From a virus (Duplodnaviria; Caudoviricetes): a DNA stretch of 64,000 nucleotides. Of this stretch, positions 3,809 to 64,000 are shown one piece after another; positions within the stretch are counted from its first letter, which is position 1; the number at the start of each line of letters is the position of its first letter. The DNA is taken from positions 2,733-66,732 of the IMG/VR virus record IMGVR_UViG_3300028630_000010; one strand, given 5' to 3'. Under the pieces are notes generated by a model, which made no database searches, was not told the origin of the DNA, and saw nothing but the letters and a program-made list of their open reading frames with translations. A program made the position numbers and the translations under genes.

Positions 3809-4024
3809 ATGCGCATCATCATCAAGGTGAAAGAAATCGGCGGGAAGATCGGCATCGAGGCGAAGCTGGACACAGGCCGCCGGGACACGGCGCGGGAACG
3901 CGCGGCGGGCGAGGCCCTGTTTCATCACCTCGGGGATCATTTCGCCGCCATGGAGCAGACGGCGACAAAGCCCTCCCGCTGGGCACGGGTCAAGGCGTTC
4001 TTCGGGGGGAAGCGGGCGAAGTGA
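3809..4024 (+). CDS. hypothetical protein (71 aa)
   Basis: RBS-like AAGGA upstream; tiles the operon. Confidence 0.6.
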   Translation: MRIIIKVKEIGGKIGIEAKLDTGRRDTARERAAGEALFHHLGDHFAAMEQTATKPSRWARVKAFFGGKRAK

Positions 4025-4254
4025 AAGACAAACCCACCCCCCCCTTCACCATCTGGAACGAGGCGGTCGATATGACCGGCTACGGACGCAGGGCCTCGGC
4101 TTCGGACGGGGCGCGCGCCCTCAAGAAGCTGCGGGGGGAGTTGGGGGCGAAGTTCGACTCCGCTTTCCGGCTGCGGATGCTGACTGCGAGGGCGGAAACG
4201 TTGGAGCAGCTGCTTGAAGAGTGGGCGCAGGAGCGCGTGAGATTGGGGGTATAA
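4021..4254 (+). CDS. hypothetical protein (77 aa)
   Basis: GTGA overlap with the upstream stop. Confidence 0.55.
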   Translation: MKDKPTPPFTIWNEAVDMTGYGRRASASDGARALKKLRGELGAKFDSAFRLRMLTARAETLEQLLEEWAQERVRLGV

Positions 4255-59057: not shown

Positions 59058-59333
59058 TCAACCCTCGACCACAACCCAGTCATCGGCAAGGATGTCGGTC
59101 TGGCTGGCAAGCCAGGGGACAAAGCCGTTGTCGGCGGTGTGCATGCCAATGTAGGGCATAAGGGTGCCGCTGTCCACGCCATCGACGGGGCCGTTCTCGC
59201 GGACAGAAAACTCAGCGTCGGTGTAGGGGTTGACGTGGCGGAGCCACATGCCCTTGCCGTTCCAGCCCTGCCGTGCAACGCGCTTGCCCTGTTTGAGCAA
59301 CTGAAGCGCCCATCCGAAGTTCCGTTCTTCCAT
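59058..59333 (-). CDS. tad2: DUF2829 / Thoeris anti-defence Tad2-family protein
   Basis: NFGWALQLLKQGKRVARQGWNGKGMWL...PWLASQTDILADDW is the family signature. Confidence 0.85.
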   Translation of the reverse strand: MEERNFGWALQLLKQGKRVARQGWNGKGMWLRHVNPYTDAEFSVRENGPVDGVDSGTLMPYIGMHTADNGFVPWLASQTDILADDWVVVEG

Positions 59334-59398: not shown

Positions 59399-61120
59399 TC
59401 AGCACAACGCCTCTTCCCCGCCGTCCCCCGCCCTCTGCCATGCCGGAACGTACAAGGAGCCATCGCGGACATAGCCGCGCCCGGTCGCCTCGGCCAACTT
59501 CATCTGATCCCCGCCCCAGCGGGCGCCGCAGCACATGTACTCGAAGGCGTCGGCGATATGAGAGTGGGCGTTCTTCGCCGGTTCGTCCGTGTTCATGTAC
59601 TCCGCGCCGATCTTGCGCCGCCCCCAGACATAGCCGCCGCCTATCGACCGGATAAGCGTGGTGCAGCCGGGGTCGATCTGCACCGCCCCCTTGTTGTTGA
59701 TGATGCGGTTCAAGAAGTGCCGCACCGCCTCAAGGCGCGTGCCGATGTCGTTGTTCGGCAGCCGGGCCGGGGGAACTGCGTCAAATCCGCAGCCCCGCAT
59801 AAGCAGAATGCCGCCCAGCGGAGAGTGCTCCGAGCGGTTCAACGCCGCCGGGTCGCAGTAGAGGGTAAGATCAGTGATCGAAAAGCCATGCGCCGCCAGC
59901 ATGGGGCGCAGGACGTTGTTGGCGAAGGTCTCCACGCTCCCCGTCGGGTCTACAGCCTCGGCGAACACATTCAGCCGACCGTCGGAGCCCATATAGCCCA
60001 GCACCGCGCGGCGGGTCTGTCCGAAGTCCATGCCGCCTATCAAACGGGTGCCGGGGGCCGGCCAGGGCACGCCGTTCTTCGCCACATGCCACCTCTCGGC
60101 GAAGTCGCTGAAAACCGGATCTCCCACCTCCGTCTTGCTGTAGAGGCAGCACACGTAGCGGTCAACATGCTCAGAGCCGGAGGTGTCGATGATGTTCTGG
60201 TAGTAGTCCCAGTGCTCGTTGAGATGCTCGATATTCTCCGCCGGGGGGATGCCCGGCCGCTGCCCCTCGTTCAACTCGTACCTCCACTTCTCGAGCTCGT
60301 CATCCCACACCTTGAACGCCGCCGGGGGCTGCTCGAAGTACACCTCCTTCTCCGGATTGGCCCCGCCGTCGCGCGATTTCTTGTACCACCATGAGTCTTC
60401 AGAGGCGGCATTCGTGTCCATGTCGACCCCGTGGTTCTTGAAGTAGTGCCAATATCCCTTGTTGTCCTGCCACGCCACCGGAAGCTCCTTGAAGTTGGGC
60501 GGGGCCATCGACAGATCAGGATAGCGCCCGCAGCGGCCGACCACCGCGTCCTTCGCCTTCTCCGAGATCGTCGTGGCCTCGTTGATCATCCCCCCGCTGA
60601 AGTTGTTGGAAAGCAGATTGCCCAGCGCCCCCGCCTTGTCCAGACCGAACCCCCGCAGCTCGAGAATATGCCTCACCCCGCCCTTCGTCTGCTCCAACGT
60701 ACCGAACACACCGTACTTCGAGCCCGTCATCCGCGTCCGGGGAAACATCGCCATCCAGGTGTCAACCAGCGTCGCCTTCAACAACGTCAGGGTGCCGCGC
60801 ACCATCGAGAACCTGTCCCGCACCACGCCGTCACGGCACGGATACTGCCGCAGGTGGCGCATGTTCATGTCCGCGGCCATGCCAACTGTCTTGCCGCTGC
60901 CAACCGGCCCCATCACACCGCGCACCAGCCGCTCCTCCCTGTGCAGCAGCTCCATCGTCCGGCTCGGGTAGTAGGTCAGATCCCGCCCCTTCCGGTACTC
61001 CTCCCACCGCTTCAACAGCGTCTCGTCACTCAGGCCCTCGTCATCGCCCGAAGCAACCCGGCGCCCAATGTCCGCCTCAAGATCGTCCAGCGCCTCGGCA
61101 TAAGATGTGTCCCGCCCCAT
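59399..61120 (-). CDS. terL: terminase large subunit
   Basis: Walker A GPVGSGKT, Walker B region MINEA, nuclease motifs GMDFG and HSHIADAFEY. Confidence 0.92.
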   Translation of the reverse strand: MGRDTSYAEALDDLEADIGRRVASGDDEGLSDETLLKRWEEYRKGRDLTYYPSRTMELLHREERLVRGVMGPVGSGKTVGMAADMNMRHLRQYPCRDGVVRDRFSMVRGTLTLLKATLVDTWMAMFPRTRMTGSKYGVFGTLEQTKGGVRHILELRGFGLDKAGALGNLLSNNFSGGMINEATTISEKAKDAVVGRCGRYPDLSMAPPNFKELPVAWQDNKGYWHYFKNHGVDMDTNAASEDSWWYKKSRDGGANPEKEVYFEQPPAAFKVWDDELEKWRYELNEGQRPGIPPAENIEHLNEHWDYYQNIIDTSGSEHVDRYVCCLYSKTEVGDPVFSDFAERWHVAKNGVPWPAPGTRLIGGMDFGQTRRAVLGYMGSDGRLNVFAEAVDPTGSVETFANNVLRPMLAAHGFSITDLTLYCDPAALNRSEHSPLGGILLMRGCGFDAVPPARLPNNDIGTRLEAVRHFLNRIINNKGAVQIDPGCTTLIRSIGGGYVWGRRKIGAEYMNTDEPAKNAHSHIADAFEYMCCGARWGGDQMKLAEATGRGYVRDGSLYVPAWQRAGDGGEEALC

Positions 61121-61124
61121 AACC

Positions 61125-61508
61125 TCACCCCTTCCTGTTGATCTTGCGCCATGCCGCGCTCAGATCGGGCAGGCACTTCGACAGAAACACTCCCGCCCAG
61201 TCGCAGCATTGGTCGAACGTGTAGTGATCCACGAGAAACATATACCCGTCCGTCGTTTCCCGGGGGGCGTGCGCTTGGGAGTACGCCGCGCCCCTCCGAT
61301 GAAGCAGCGCCTCCATCGACTCATGCAGCAAACACGCCACACCGTCCGCCCAACTCTTCCCCTTGCAACGAATGACGATCTTCTGGCACCCCCCATCCGC
61401 CGGGTTGTACCAAACCGCCGCGGCGCACCCATCGGTGTCTCCGTCCAGCTCGACCCGCACATTGTCGAAGCCGAGAATGTATGTCCCAACCAATATCGGT
61501 TTGCTCAT
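61125..61508 (-). CDS. small protein with an HExxE metallopeptidase-like motif
   Basis: CLLHESMEALL; ATGA overlap with the terS stop. Confidence 0.55.
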   Translation of the reverse strand: MSKPILVGTYILGFDNVRVELDGDTDGCAAAVWYNPADGGCQKIVIRCKGKSWADGVACLLHESMEALLHRRGAAYSQAHAPRETTDGYMFLVDHYTFDQCCDWAGVFLSKCLPDLSAAWRKINRKG

Positions 61509-62266
61509 GGCGTGTCTCCTTTCGCCCCCGCCGGCACACACTCCATCGCCTTGAACGCCGTCGCCCTGTCCGCAAACAATACCGTGTCCACGTTCTCCCC
61601 AACAGGAGCCGCCTCCACCGGAGCCCCGTCCACACCAGGCGCAGGCTTCGGGGGCGGCCCGCCCTTCGCCCCCTTCGGAACCTTCACCCCAACGTCCTTC
61701 CCCACAAACCCCAACCCCTTCAATAAATTCACCCCAAGGTTGTTGTCGAACTTCCTCAGCGTCACCCTCTCCCCGCCACGCACATCCTCAACGTCGTACC
61801 CGTTCAGACTCCTCCCCCATAAATCATCCTCCAGCCGACTCGCCGCCACCTCCCGCCGCACCTTCACCGCCGCCGCCCATAAGGCCGCATACTCCGCATC
61901 CTCCCGCCACTCCACCACCTCCAACCATGTGGACTTCGACGCTTTAAGCGCGTCCTCAGTCGATCCCTTTCCTATGTTCCCCGCCATCTGCCCCAACAGC
62001 ATCAGCGCCCTCCGCCTCGGACGCTTCCCGAGTATGCCAAGGCACAGCCCGCCCCCTCCCCTCTTGTGCCGCTCCACATATTCCAGCCCCGCTATCCGCG
62101 CCAGCTTCCTCACTATCGCCTCAGGTATGTCCGCAGGAGCCGTGTCCATGAACCGCCCACGCTCCTTCCCCTCTGGCATGTTCTCTGCCACAGCCTCTGC
62201 CACAGCCTCTGCCACAGCCTCTGCCTCTGCCTCATTGCTCACTCTCTCCGCATTTTCGCTCTCCAT
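61505..62266 (-). CDS. terS: terminase small subunit
   Basis: RLEDDLWGRSLNG...RKFDNNLGVNLLKG; upstream of terL; AAGGAGG RBS. Confidence 0.75.
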   Translation of the reverse strand: MESENAERVSNEAEAEAVAEAVAEAVAENMPEGKERGRFMDTAPADIPEAIVRKLARIAGLEYVERHKRGGGGLCLGILGKRPRRRALMLLGQMAGNIGKGSTEDALKASKSTWLEVVEWREDAEYAALWAAAVKVRREVAASRLEDDLWGRSLNGYDVEDVRGGERVTLRKFDNNLGVNLLKGLGFVGKDVGVKVPKGAKGGPPPKPAPGVDGAPVEAAPVGENVDTVLFADRATAFKAMECVPAGAKGDTP

Positions 62267-62659
62267 ACTGCCCTCCTTGCCCTTTCGCCGCGATATATTA
62301 CCTCTCCCACGCCCCCTTTACAACCCTTTTTTTTCACCCCGCCCCTCTTCATGTCCTCTGCGCCGCCTCTGAATTATCAGAACGTTTGCCCCTCACATCA
62401 CAGGGGAGGGAGCGAAAGGGGTCCCCCCGTTCCCAACCGCCGCCCCCCTCCGCGGCGGAGTCCCAGTCCCCCCATAGGGCGGGGTCGGCGGGTCGGCGGG
62501 GTGTGGGGGGGTGAGGGGCTAGCTGCGAGCGTGCAGCGTGCGCGGCGCGCGATCCGCGAGCAAACGTGTGCAGGTGATAGGCGCACATTATGACGGCGAA
62601 ATCGCGTCGCATAATATACATTATGTAAAATAGGTGTTGTGGTCAGGGTGGGTCGCGAC

Positions 62660-63003
62660 GGCGAACGGTTCGCCGAGGGGTCGTGGCGAACGGGTCGCCG
62701 AGGGGTCGAGGCGAACGGGTCGCCGAGGGGTCGAGGCGAACGGGTCGCCGACAGGGGCTCGACGGCGAACGGGTCGCCGACAGGGGCTCGACGGCGAACG
62801 GGTCGCCGACAGGGGCTCGACGGCGAACGGGTCGCCGACAGGGGCTCGACGGCGAACGGGTCGCCGAGGGGTCGTGGCGAACGGTTCGCCGAGGGGTCGT
62901 GGCGAACGGTTCGCCGAGGGGTCGAGGCGAACGGGTCGCCGAGGGGTCGTGGCGAACGGGTCGCCGAGGGGTCGTGGCGAACGGGTCGCCGAGGGGTCGT
63001 GGC
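62660..63003. repeat. 13-unit tandem hairpin repeat array (9 x 25 bp, 4 x 29 bp)
   Basis: Core GGCGAACGG(G/T)TCGCCGA plus linker GGGGTCG(T/A) or CAGGGGCTCGAC. Confidence 0.95.
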
Positions 63004-63005
63004 TG

Positions 63006-63167
63006 GTTTCAATTCACGCGCCCCGCGTGGGGCGCGTCCGACTATGCGGATATAGTATATTAGAGGTCGGTTTCAATTCACGCGTCCCGCGTGGGGCGCG
63101 ACAGGTTCTTCGAATCCGACAATATCGCGAACCTGTTTCAATTCACGCGTCCCGCGTGGGGCGCGTC
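63006..63167 (-). CRISPR. orphan type I-C CRISPR mini-array (3 x 33-bp repeats; spacers of 31 and 32 bp)
   Basis: Repeats at 63006-63038, 63070-63102 and 63135-63167. The minus-strand repeat GTCGCGCCCCACGCGGGACGCGTGAATTGAAAC has the I-C hairpin and ATTGAAAC end. No cas genes in the window. Confidence 0.9.
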
Positions 63168-63406
63168 GAGGGGAGAGGCGGCTACACTTCGCGCGGGCGG
63201 GCGCGGGCGCGCGGTTCAGGGCGGCGGGGAGGGAGCGAAACAACTCCCCTTTCTCTGCGTTTTTTTGATCCCCGCGTTGCGCGACTCACGCGCGAAAATT
63301 ATGCGAAAAAAAAATTTTTTTGCGGATGGTGCACCATGGGGAAAATTCGCAAAAACCCCAATAAAATAGGGGTTTTTGGGGGATAAAAAAAATTTGCGTG
63401 AGGGGG

Positions 63407-63435
63407 TTGACAGATGAACGGGGATATATTATATT
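63407..63435 (+). promoter_or_regulatory. strong sigma70-type (early) promoter
   Basis: TTGACA-N17-TATATT preceded by A/T tracts (UP-like). Confidence 0.85.
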
Positions 63436-63530
63436 AGATGCAAATGGGGCGCATACCGCGCCCCACCCAGACAACAACAACACCGCGCCCGCCCGTGGGC
63501 ATCGTACGCGGGCAGAAAGGAGAGCGAAAG

Positions 63531-64000
<470 letters not shown>

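Follow-up and report, generated by a model that had tools for sequence, protein, structure and literature searches.

What are 13 tandem GC hairpins doing at the trailer end of a CRISPR array in a phage genome, and do they belong to that array? The locus lies in the 64,000-nt stretch of DNA analysed here (the window), which comprises bases 2733–66732 of a 66,732-bp IMG/VR virus record. The record ends with a repeat of its first ~130 bases, which indicates a circular or terminally redundant assembly of ~66,565 bp; the overlap falls within the DUF7666 gene. The hairpins are located in a 1.26-kb non-coding region separating divergent late and early modules. Plus-strand genes running from 63531 through the record start encode a DUF7666 protein, an AAA/PIF1-like helicase and a BT4734-like primase domain, and further early genes on this strand encode a DnaB-like ATPase, a RecA-like protein, a 5'-3' exonuclease, a methylase and an SNF2 helicase. 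The minus-strand genes, from 62266 downward, comprise gp1, a 138-aa ORF, the large terminase (TerL), and Tad2-like and portal-like genes, with the hairpin array positioned 394 nt upstream of gp1. The adjoining CRISPR repeat is identical to those of arrays in Kiritimatiellia metagenome-assembled genomes (MAGs), and one such array holds two spacers that match the phage at 34/34 positions. The exact repeat identity, together with these two host spacers, identifies the host as Kiritimatiellia.

Tandem Repeats Finder (TRF) reports positions 62660–63003 as a period of 25 nt with 13.1 copies, 95% matches and a score of 474. Cutting at GGCGAAC resolves the array, extended to 63005, into 13 head-to-tail units, nine of 25 nt and four of 29 nt, in the order 25, 25, 25, 29, 29, 29, 29, 25, 25, 25, 25, 25 nt, followed by the last unit, GGC and TG. 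The core, GGCGAACGG(G/T)TCGCC, is constant in all units apart from its central G/T, and each unit thus contains the near-palindrome GGCGAAC-G-G(G/T)TCGCC. A central T, present in three of the 13 units, yields a perfect 15-bp palindrome (7-1-7), while the central G of the other ten gives a 5-bp stem with a 5-nt loop. Two types of linker, GAGGGGTCG(T/A) and GACAGGGGCTCGAC, separate the hairpins. The central 29-nt block is a recent sub-expansion, and the number of its identical units depends on short-read assembly and may be inexact. Both TRF and the list of all 13 units bear out the first-pass annotation in describing 13 tandem GC hairpins devoid of variable spacers. The coordinates of these and the surrounding elements are compiled in the table.

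Features of the early/late control region and its flanks (window coordinates)
Feature	Position	Strand	Basis or remark
Large terminase	59399-61120	-	Follows gp1 and the 138-aa ORF
gp1, 253 aa, no family	61505..62266	-	First gene of the packaging/structural operon
Inverted repeat ATTATG..N..CGCATAAT, then ATACATTATG	62582..62635		Left border of the control region
Left junction GTGGTCAG, then GGTGGGTCGCGAC	62640..62659		Alignments and interval listing
13-unit array, core GGCGAACGG(G/T)TCGCC	62660..63005		TRF, unit list, identity with L108, sharing of GGGTCGCCGAGGGG
Four identical 29-nt units, linker GACAGGGGCTCGAC	62735..62850		L108 contig breaks inside the block
Mini-CRISPR array, three 33-nt type I-C repeats (63006, 63070, 63135)	63006..63167	-	Repeat identity to Kiritimatiellia arrays
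GAGGGGAGAGGCGG, remnant of the ancestral tract's right end	63168..63181		Homology to L132
Conserved GC-rich element, hairpin GGGAGCGAAACAACTCCC and T-run at its end	63182..63268	+	Right slot border in all relatives
TCGCATAAT, conserved in relatives	63298..63306	-	Faces the copy at 62607
Early promoter TTGACA-17-TATATT	63407..63435	+	11/12 matches; before the DUF7666 gene (ATG 63531)

Within the 66.7-kb genome, the core has 13 matches, all on the plus strand and all within the array. With up to three mismatches allowed, 33 matches were found across the whole genome against 5.3 expected, and no shuffle reached 33. Since neither period, 25 or 29 nt, is divisible by three and GC3 is flat in the overlapping ORFs, the array is non-coding. 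Folding of the RNA from either strand produced many competing pairings (z = -2.45 and -4.58), and the transcribed strand was not revealed. A search of Rfam with the array returned only a sub-threshold microRNA match, and INPHARED phages contained no match to it. An IMG/VR search with a 17-mer gave only 75 single chance matches, while the 24-mer unit used as a query against JGI metagenomes found none.

The array also occurs in an independent contig, L108 (ENA ERZ27257501 k141_194229), which was located via its identical DUF7666 protein. This contig is 100% identical to the present phage over 780 nt, a match that takes in the right nine units, both CRISPR-repeat junctions and the early promoter, and that stops inside the identical 29-nt block. 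Because L108 is identical across the hairpin–CRISPR junction, the junction is not an assembly chimera. The two genomes diverge completely 3' of the first early gene; identity followed by such divergence indicates that the array and the CRISPR cassette are real and present in two mosaic genomes.

The neighbouring mini-CRISPR array, also present in L108, contains two spacers of 31 and 32 nt, and the 19-nt core of one guide corresponds to the early-promoter -10/start region of sister phages. Repeat 1 (GTTTCAATTC...) begins at 63006, 2 nt past the terminal GGC of the hairpin array, exactly as first described, and the same junction is seen in L108. Read in the I-C sense, on the minus strand, repeat 1 lies at the trailer end of the CRISPR array with no terminator between it and the hairpins, and the earlier description of a geometry running straight from one into the other is correct. 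Viral mini-CRISPR arrays, solitary repeat units (Racr) and crRNA-like RNAs have been described (PMC11656645, PMC10651486, bioRxiv 10.1101/2024.10.29.618823). The three repeats here resemble such elements in being identical to the host I-C repeat, intergenic in a phage and unaccompanied by cas genes. The hairpin units differ from them: they are not repeat mimics and occur without CRISPR repeats in relatives. The hairpin tract has no unique spacers, and its unit is unlike the I-C repeat. Nothing like the unit was found in host CRISPR arrays or at their trailer ends. A host-derived element was considered and rejected, as the core is absent from three host MAGs and the flanks of the host trailers are unrelated. 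Among 401 Kiritimatiellia genomes, double-hairpin matches stayed at the control level with no CRISPR-like or tandem arrangement, and single-mismatch hairpin matches, found in 121 Kiritimatiellia genomes, were scattered single copies only.

Metagenomes contain numerous close homologues of TerL, gp1 and the DUF7666 protein, with >1,200 found for the DUF7666 protein, the first early protein. A probe from the conserved late leader recovered 14 more metagenome contigs; a conserved-leader probe found none in IMG/VR, nor did TerL peptide patterns. Prophage TerL matches in Kiritimatiellia (~32% identity) were too distant to use. TerL occurs in 707- and 573-aa forms; a frameshift or fusion was rejected as the cause, and the gene order in L105 and L106 together with a weak Pfam intein match suggests an intein-type insertion.

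We defined the slot as the interval from the conserved CGCATAAT to the conserved GCGAAACAACTCCCC and T-run. It is spanned by 14 relatives, in which it measures 166–280 nt, compared with 633 nt in the present phage. The hairpin-array unit was found in none of the 14, and CRISPR repeats are likewise absent from all of them. Most carry tandem repeats of their own at this position, with periods of 7–52 nt. The units are GA-rich in L132, L105 (whose contig ends within its own repeat tract) and L121, while L127 carries TGGAGGGGGCT, L124 and L126 carry four copies of CGAGGCGCCGAGGGG, and L128 carries six copies of GGGGCGGCGAGGGTCGCCGA. The two shortest tracts, those of L109 and L097, are G-rich with no tandem repeat in the scan; since they span only ~30–60 nt, a long tract is not essential. 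All slot tracts are G-rich on the early-sense strand, with a GC skew of +0.26 to +0.80; they consist of 58–81% purines and contain 2–19 GAGG and zero CCTC on the plus strand. In L110, a more distant relative, other repeats occur elsewhere within the same region.

L109 (66,352 bp) shows 92% DNA identity up to position 62622 of the window, ~40 nt short of the array, and 97% identity across the 667-aa early gene. It has ~104 nt where this phage has ~570 nt, and it contains neither the units nor CRISPR repeats; the same applies to L097. In L105 and L106, the gp1 proteins are 94–96% identical to that of this phage and the unit is absent. The contigs of the closest relatives (L102, L103, L105, L106 and L107) end 100–540 nt upstream of gp1, which is the position of the array. 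L132 shares the right flank (GAGGGGAGAGAGGCGGTCACAC...) but has a GA-rich tract and no CRISPR repeats there, while in the present phage the third CRISPR repeat (R3) is followed by GAGGGGAGAGGCGGCTACAC. The hairpin unit has counterparts among these alleles. A 14-mer, GGGTCGCCGAGGGG, is common to the unit and the hairpin-type alleles of four relatives, among them L124, L126 and L128, whose alleles also share the hairpin GGCGA-GGG-TCGCC with it. L102 carries a single unit-like copy.

The locus thus displays head-to-tail copies of one unit, differing alleles at one position between conserved flanks, and a unit that was derived locally rather than imported, as indicated by the sharing of GGGTCGCCGAGGGG and GGCGA..TCGCC. 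From these sequence comparisons, the 13 hairpin units very probably represent the local allele of a hypervariable tandem-repeat slot in the early/late control region. Its source was a GGGTCGCCGAGGGG-type motif amplified in situ, which other hairpin-type alleles contain as well. As G-rich tracts without CRISPR repeats occupy the position in 14 of 14 relatives, the mini-array sits in a pre-existing repeat slot; its three I-C repeats were inserted inside the slot, 6–14 nt from its right end, and the adjacency of hairpins and CRISPR repeats is therefore historical. The initial view of the hairpins as functionally part of the CRISPR array is not supported by the same 14 relatives, some of which carry homologous hairpins in their G-rich tracts. 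The feature is a hypervariable non-coding control-region repeat in a phage, a kind of element that is already known.

The borders of the slot are better conserved than its content and hold several candidate signals. At the left junction, GTGGTCAG is homologous to ..GTGGTCA.. just 5' of the tract in L132, L105 and L109, and the following GGTGGGTCGCGAC resembles a degenerate linker of the 29-nt type. On the right, GAGGGGAGAGGCGG is homologous to GAGGGGAGAGAGGCGG, which ends the GA-rich tract of L132. The hairpin GGGAGCGAAACAACTCCC with its T-run looks like a weak plus-sense terminator, comprising a 5-bp stem and an interrupted T-run; consensus folding of the right-border element in both orientations favoured no strand. 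The CATAAT hexamer of the left-border inverted repeat is kept in 16 of 18 sequences. TCGCATAAT at 63298 and the copy at 62607 point towards each other, so that -10-like motifs converge on the slot from both sides. A good -35 box is absent from both, and a promoter scan found the early promoter only, which is retained in relatives as TTGAC(A/G)-17-TATATT.

Because unrelated allele sequences keep their strand composition between conserved borders, a composition-dependent role is favoured for the tract. As a tentative proposal, it may insulate the late operon that follows it, by loading Rho or as a roadblock, and act through its composition and structure on the transcripts that cross it and not through a sequence-specific protein. 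Reading in the late direction would generate an untranslated RNA that is C-rich and G-poor and, in this phage, also studded with GC hairpins. Such an RNA could load Rho and/or stall the polymerase, and would thereby keep leftward transcription from entering the late operon before the phage allows this. This leftward transcription might originate from the conserved TCGCATAAT, from an extra ORF in some relatives or, in the present phage, from the mini-CRISPR array, whose transcript would then also have the tract as its protected 3' end.

Several observations are consistent with this proposal. The late-sense RNA contains 39–57% C and 0–28% G across all alleles, and that of L132 is G-free and unstructured over 145 nt. 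The mini-array is oriented in the late sense, with the conserved late-sense TCGCATAAT upstream of it. In some relatives, a late-sense ORF lies there and is not followed by an intrinsic terminator, and the host MAG carrying the phage-matching spacers encodes Rho. Composition-defined sites of this kind are familiar from phage leaders, whose rut sites and Rho-dependent attenuators (lambda tR1, for instance) consist of untranslated RNA that is C-rich and G-poor. By sequence, the slot resembles them in its late-sense composition and in its position ahead of an operon that needs delay, while the present allele differs in being strongly structured, which typical rut sites are not. At -0.41 kcal/nt and 26% G in the late sense, this allele suits Rho loading less well than the GA-rich alleles do. 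Furthermore, the strand asymmetry fits the opposite reading equally well, namely a purine-rich early-sense transcript that would end at the hairpin and T-run. As judged from the sequences, late-sense and early-sense transcription across the slot are both possible. Considered as a whole, the explanation that combines the identity of the slot with a composition-dependent mechanism appears a little better than even.

The early-sense reading leads to a transcription-primed origin of the type known from lactococcal c2 phages (Ceduovirus). In c2, a non-coding transcript (PE1) between two early promoters primes replication, and otherwise similar phages diverge chiefly in the ori region, where a single position has several unrelated types (PMC7150918). 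The slot is similarly non-coding, lies between divergent early and late blocks and upstream of the main early promoter, and forms the main point of divergence. It differs, as far as its sequence reveals, in consisting of strand-asymmetric tandem repeats, and the host phylum and phage group are unrelated. To our knowledge, such repeats have not been reported for c2. In an origin of this type, an early-sense RNA would extend from the CATAAT at ~62610 to the hairpin and T-run, and its G-rich portion would form a persistent RNA–DNA hybrid (R-loop) serving as the primer for replication; the sequence would then be free to vary, as composition alone would count. The G-richness of every allele on the early-sense strand fits this idea, as do the conservation of CATAAT and of the right-border hairpin and T-run, the hypervariable non-coding setting between divergent blocks, an AT-rich stretch at 63290–63400 and the replication genes that directly follow. 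However, CATAAT lacks a usable -35 element and forms half of a palindrome, which could itself explain its conservation, and the terminator is weak. Gene orientation confounds the cumulative GC-skew minimum near 62 kb, which might otherwise mark an origin. An early-sense transcript would read the mini-CRISPR array in antisense, and by strict criteria for R-loop initiation motifs (G-clusters ≤10 nt apart) this allele is only a borderline case. We regard such an origin as unlikely. A neutral minisatellite, generated by slippage or unequal recombination in a G-rich non-coding stretch and having no function of its own, seems to us similarly improbable. The near-identity of the units implies recent expansion, alleles differ wildly among close relatives, and two of these get by with the short tracts noted above. 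The genome also contains other, in-frame VNTRs, and L110 has its repeats elsewhere in the region. Nevertheless, GA-rich and GC-hairpin alleles alike keep their strand asymmetry and position in 14 of 14 relatives, which looks like a constraint on composition, and phage genomes seldom retain 350 nt of useless DNA.

Readings in which the particular sequence matters fare less well. The array could represent 13 phased palindromic operators forming an allele-specific platform for a dimeric DNA-binding protein, such as an iteron-binding initiator, a small terminase (TerS) acting at pac, a centromere-binding protein or a regulator. A 7-1-7 palindrome, perfect in three units, is what dimeric helix-turn-helix proteins would be expected to bind; the array stands before the packaging operon's first gene and adjoins the replication module, and the hairpin-type alleles of L124 and L128 keep GGCGA..TCGCC. 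Iterons such as those of P1 oriR/incA and lambda ori, and TerS-binding repeats such as the lambda cosB R sites and SPP1 pacL/pacR, likewise consist of multiple direct repeats in non-coding DNA adjoining replication genes and the terminase operon. The present units differ in being palindromic rather than asymmetric, in their 25- and 29-bp periods, which are not helically phased, and in their absence from relatives with the same flanking proteins. Iterons are conserved with their initiator, and L109 shares the early replication region (97%) without having the unit; TerS sites in pac or cos are conserved with the small terminase, and although the position of the array would fit, L105, L106 and L109 have no unit. 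On comparison of the relatives' sequences, a gp1-specific site is contradicted. For the iteron reading, no cognate initiator was identified, and the first early genes revealed no family of the Rep type. When gp1, gp2, the first proteins of the early module and the additional ORFs of relatives were searched against Pfam and PHROG, none was assigned to a DNA-binding family or to a small terminase; the neighbouring and early small proteins thus offer no DNA-binding family for a platform. Nor does an isolated copy of the palindrome occur elsewhere in the genome, and the searched host genomes hold scattered single matches without clustered or tandem hairpins. We accordingly consider a protein platform quite improbable. 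Of the earlier suggestion that the hairpins are an origin or pac site, the sequence-specific form, with iterons or TerS sites, fails on L109, whose flanks are 92–97% identical, and on L105 and L106; in a looser form, the control region may still contain a sequence-tolerant origin linked to transcription, as in c2 phages. As for the cruciform substrate that the first-pass annotation also suggested, the palindrome arms of the array, only 5–7 bp, are short for extrusion, and the GA-rich slot alleles have no palindromes.

Rows of short GC hairpins in intergenic DNA are also seen in REP elements, which protect upstream mRNA 3' ends, and in the Gut-1 RNA motif (Rfam RF01706). Gut-1 has variable hairpins on a constant linker, whereas the hairpin is constant here; moreover, no Rfam family matched the array, and its units are not scattered through either the host or the phage genome. 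The first-pass annotation had further proposed that the hairpins, transcribed together with the mini-array, act as a multivalent RNA decoy that occupies Cas5d/Cas7 or some other defence protein that binds RNA. Geometry alone speaks for it, in that an I-C-sense transcript would continue from the three repeats into the 13 hairpins, and viral repeat-mimic RNAs that poison Cas complexes are known (PMC10651486; bioRxiv 10.1101/2024.10.29.618823). Yet the I-C stem-loop and the ATTGAAAC handle are both missing from the unit, homologous hairpin tracts occupy the same slot in phages without CRISPR repeats, and the Kiritimatiellia genomes and host trailers searched contain no comparable clustered hairpins. 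As the unit resembles no host CRISPR repeat, the decoy idea is unsupported, and we consider it highly improbable. There is also a slim chance that the hairpin tract and the mini-array form one transcription unit, in which a constitutive leftward promoter would make a short RNA with two crRNA-like guides that the hairpins both end and protect, or else that the slot is a new kind of composition-defined R-loop origin common to a large, uncultured group of Kiritimatiellia phages. If the single-unit reading were true, the host type I-C Cascade would be loaded early, against competitors or for self-control, with the late genes off; in a variant of it, the hairpin tail might soak up Cas7.

VNTRs are not confined to the slot in this genome: in-frame 12-nt repeats occur in gp1 and 9-nt repeats in the DUF7666 gene.

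Read as an allele of the slot, the apparent fusion of hairpins to a CRISPR array becomes a mini-array inserted into a repeat hot spot, and the anti-CRISPR story is unsupported. In a very abundant, uncultured group of phages of anaerobic-digester Kiritimatiellia, a repeat-prone tract is kept at a fixed position in the early/late control region, where the sequence is free to change and the strand composition is not. Composition-defined elements such as Rho loading sites and R-loop origins are hard to recognise via homology, and the many natural alleles of the slot allow testing of which property of the tract matters. The slot is also a site at which phages of this group take up non-coding cargo, mini-CRISPR arrays being one example.

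The non-coding control region between the late and early modules combines strongly conserved elements with elements that vary among the related phages. The late leader includes a strongly conserved stretch with a CTCCG...CGGAG hairpin, the loop of which differs between relatives, and a 24-nt copy of the end of the conserved stretch is found again closer to the early genes. Most relatives carry a 10-bp inverted repeat that contains two TTGACA boxes and has the CGCATAAT motif on one side and the repeat tract on the other. This inverted repeat is absent from the window; the window phage has lost it. In L110, a more distant relative of 65.6 kb, the equivalent region is occupied by different tandem repeats; one set adjoins the first late gene, gp1, and a G-rich set lies beyond the CGCATAAT motif as seen from gp1.

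Coordinates of the features (window positions unless a contig is named)
Feature	Location	Sequence or content
Terminase-portal slot, window phage	59058-59333	Tad2-like protein
Terminase-portal slot, L097	same position	Acb2/Tad1-hairpin protein
Terminase-portal slot, L102	same position	dGTP-diphosphohydrolase-like N-domain protein
Large terminase	59399-61120	573 aa
gp1 12-nt repeat	62183-62233	CTCTGCCACAGC x4.2
Conserved stretch in the late leader	62400-62480	CCCTATGGGGGGAYYGGGACTCCG ... GGACCCCTTTCGCTCCCTCCCC
Spacer 1	63039-63069	19-nt core GGATATAGTATATTAGAGG
Spacer 1 ends	63038-63070	CCGAC...GTCGG
Repeat 2	63070-63102	C-to-T at position 16
Spacer 2 ends	63102-63135	CAGGTTC...GAACCTG
Repeat 3	63135-63167	C-to-T at position 16
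24-nt leader copy	63226-63249
Early-promoter region compared with spacer 1	63413-63443
DUF7666 9-nt VNTR	63946-63995 and record start	CGGCGAGGG
Inverted repeat of relatives	L109:1060-1130; equivalents in L121-L133	ATTGTCAACC-N14-GGTTGACAAT
L110 repeats, gp1 side	L110:2557-3206 (whole region)	GGCGCATATTG x8
L110 repeats, G-rich	L110:2557-3206 (whole region)	GTGCTGCG x13
Host mini-array	L011 (JAPXSY010000003.1), ~3920-4050	two repeats, one spacer

Tandem repeats also occur in frame within the genes on both sides of this region. The N-terminal part of gp1 bears a 12-nt repeat, and this part is not covered by alignments to more distant gp1 homologues. The DUF7666 early protein, whose 1,237 homologues are 156-269 aa long, carries a 9-nt VNTR at its C-terminal end; the overlap of the record's two ends falls within this VNTR, where the ends differ. 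The large terminase is 95-98% identical to the longer forms of 706-715 aa found in many close relatives (P0003-P0015, L106). The extra ~134 aa of the long form weakly match the Pfam intein family PF14890, which suggests that a mini-intein may be present or absent as a polymorphism among these terminases. Next to the terminase gene, the slot that separates it from the portal gene is a hot spot for anti-defence genes. In L107, a 1018-aa gene with a weak LAGLIDADG match is located at the portal position.

Spacer 1 of the mini-CRISPR array has a 19-nt core that exactly matches the -10/start region of the early promoters of several sister phages (L097, L127, and L132). The window phage's own early promoter differs from this core at two positions. 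The spacer flanks (9 nt and 3 nt) match no sampled relative, and no TTC PAM lies beside the core matches. The substitution shared by repeats 2 and 3 produces a C-A mismatch within the repeat stem in the I-C sense and a tolerated G-U pair in the opposite sense. An isolated I-C mini-array is also present in a host MAG (Kiritimatiellia), away from any long array within the stretch seen. Both phage spacers have self-complementary ends and are 31-32 nt long, compared with 33-35 nt in the host arrays, features that are unusual for acquired spacers. These features hint at a designed crRNA-like or structured RNA.
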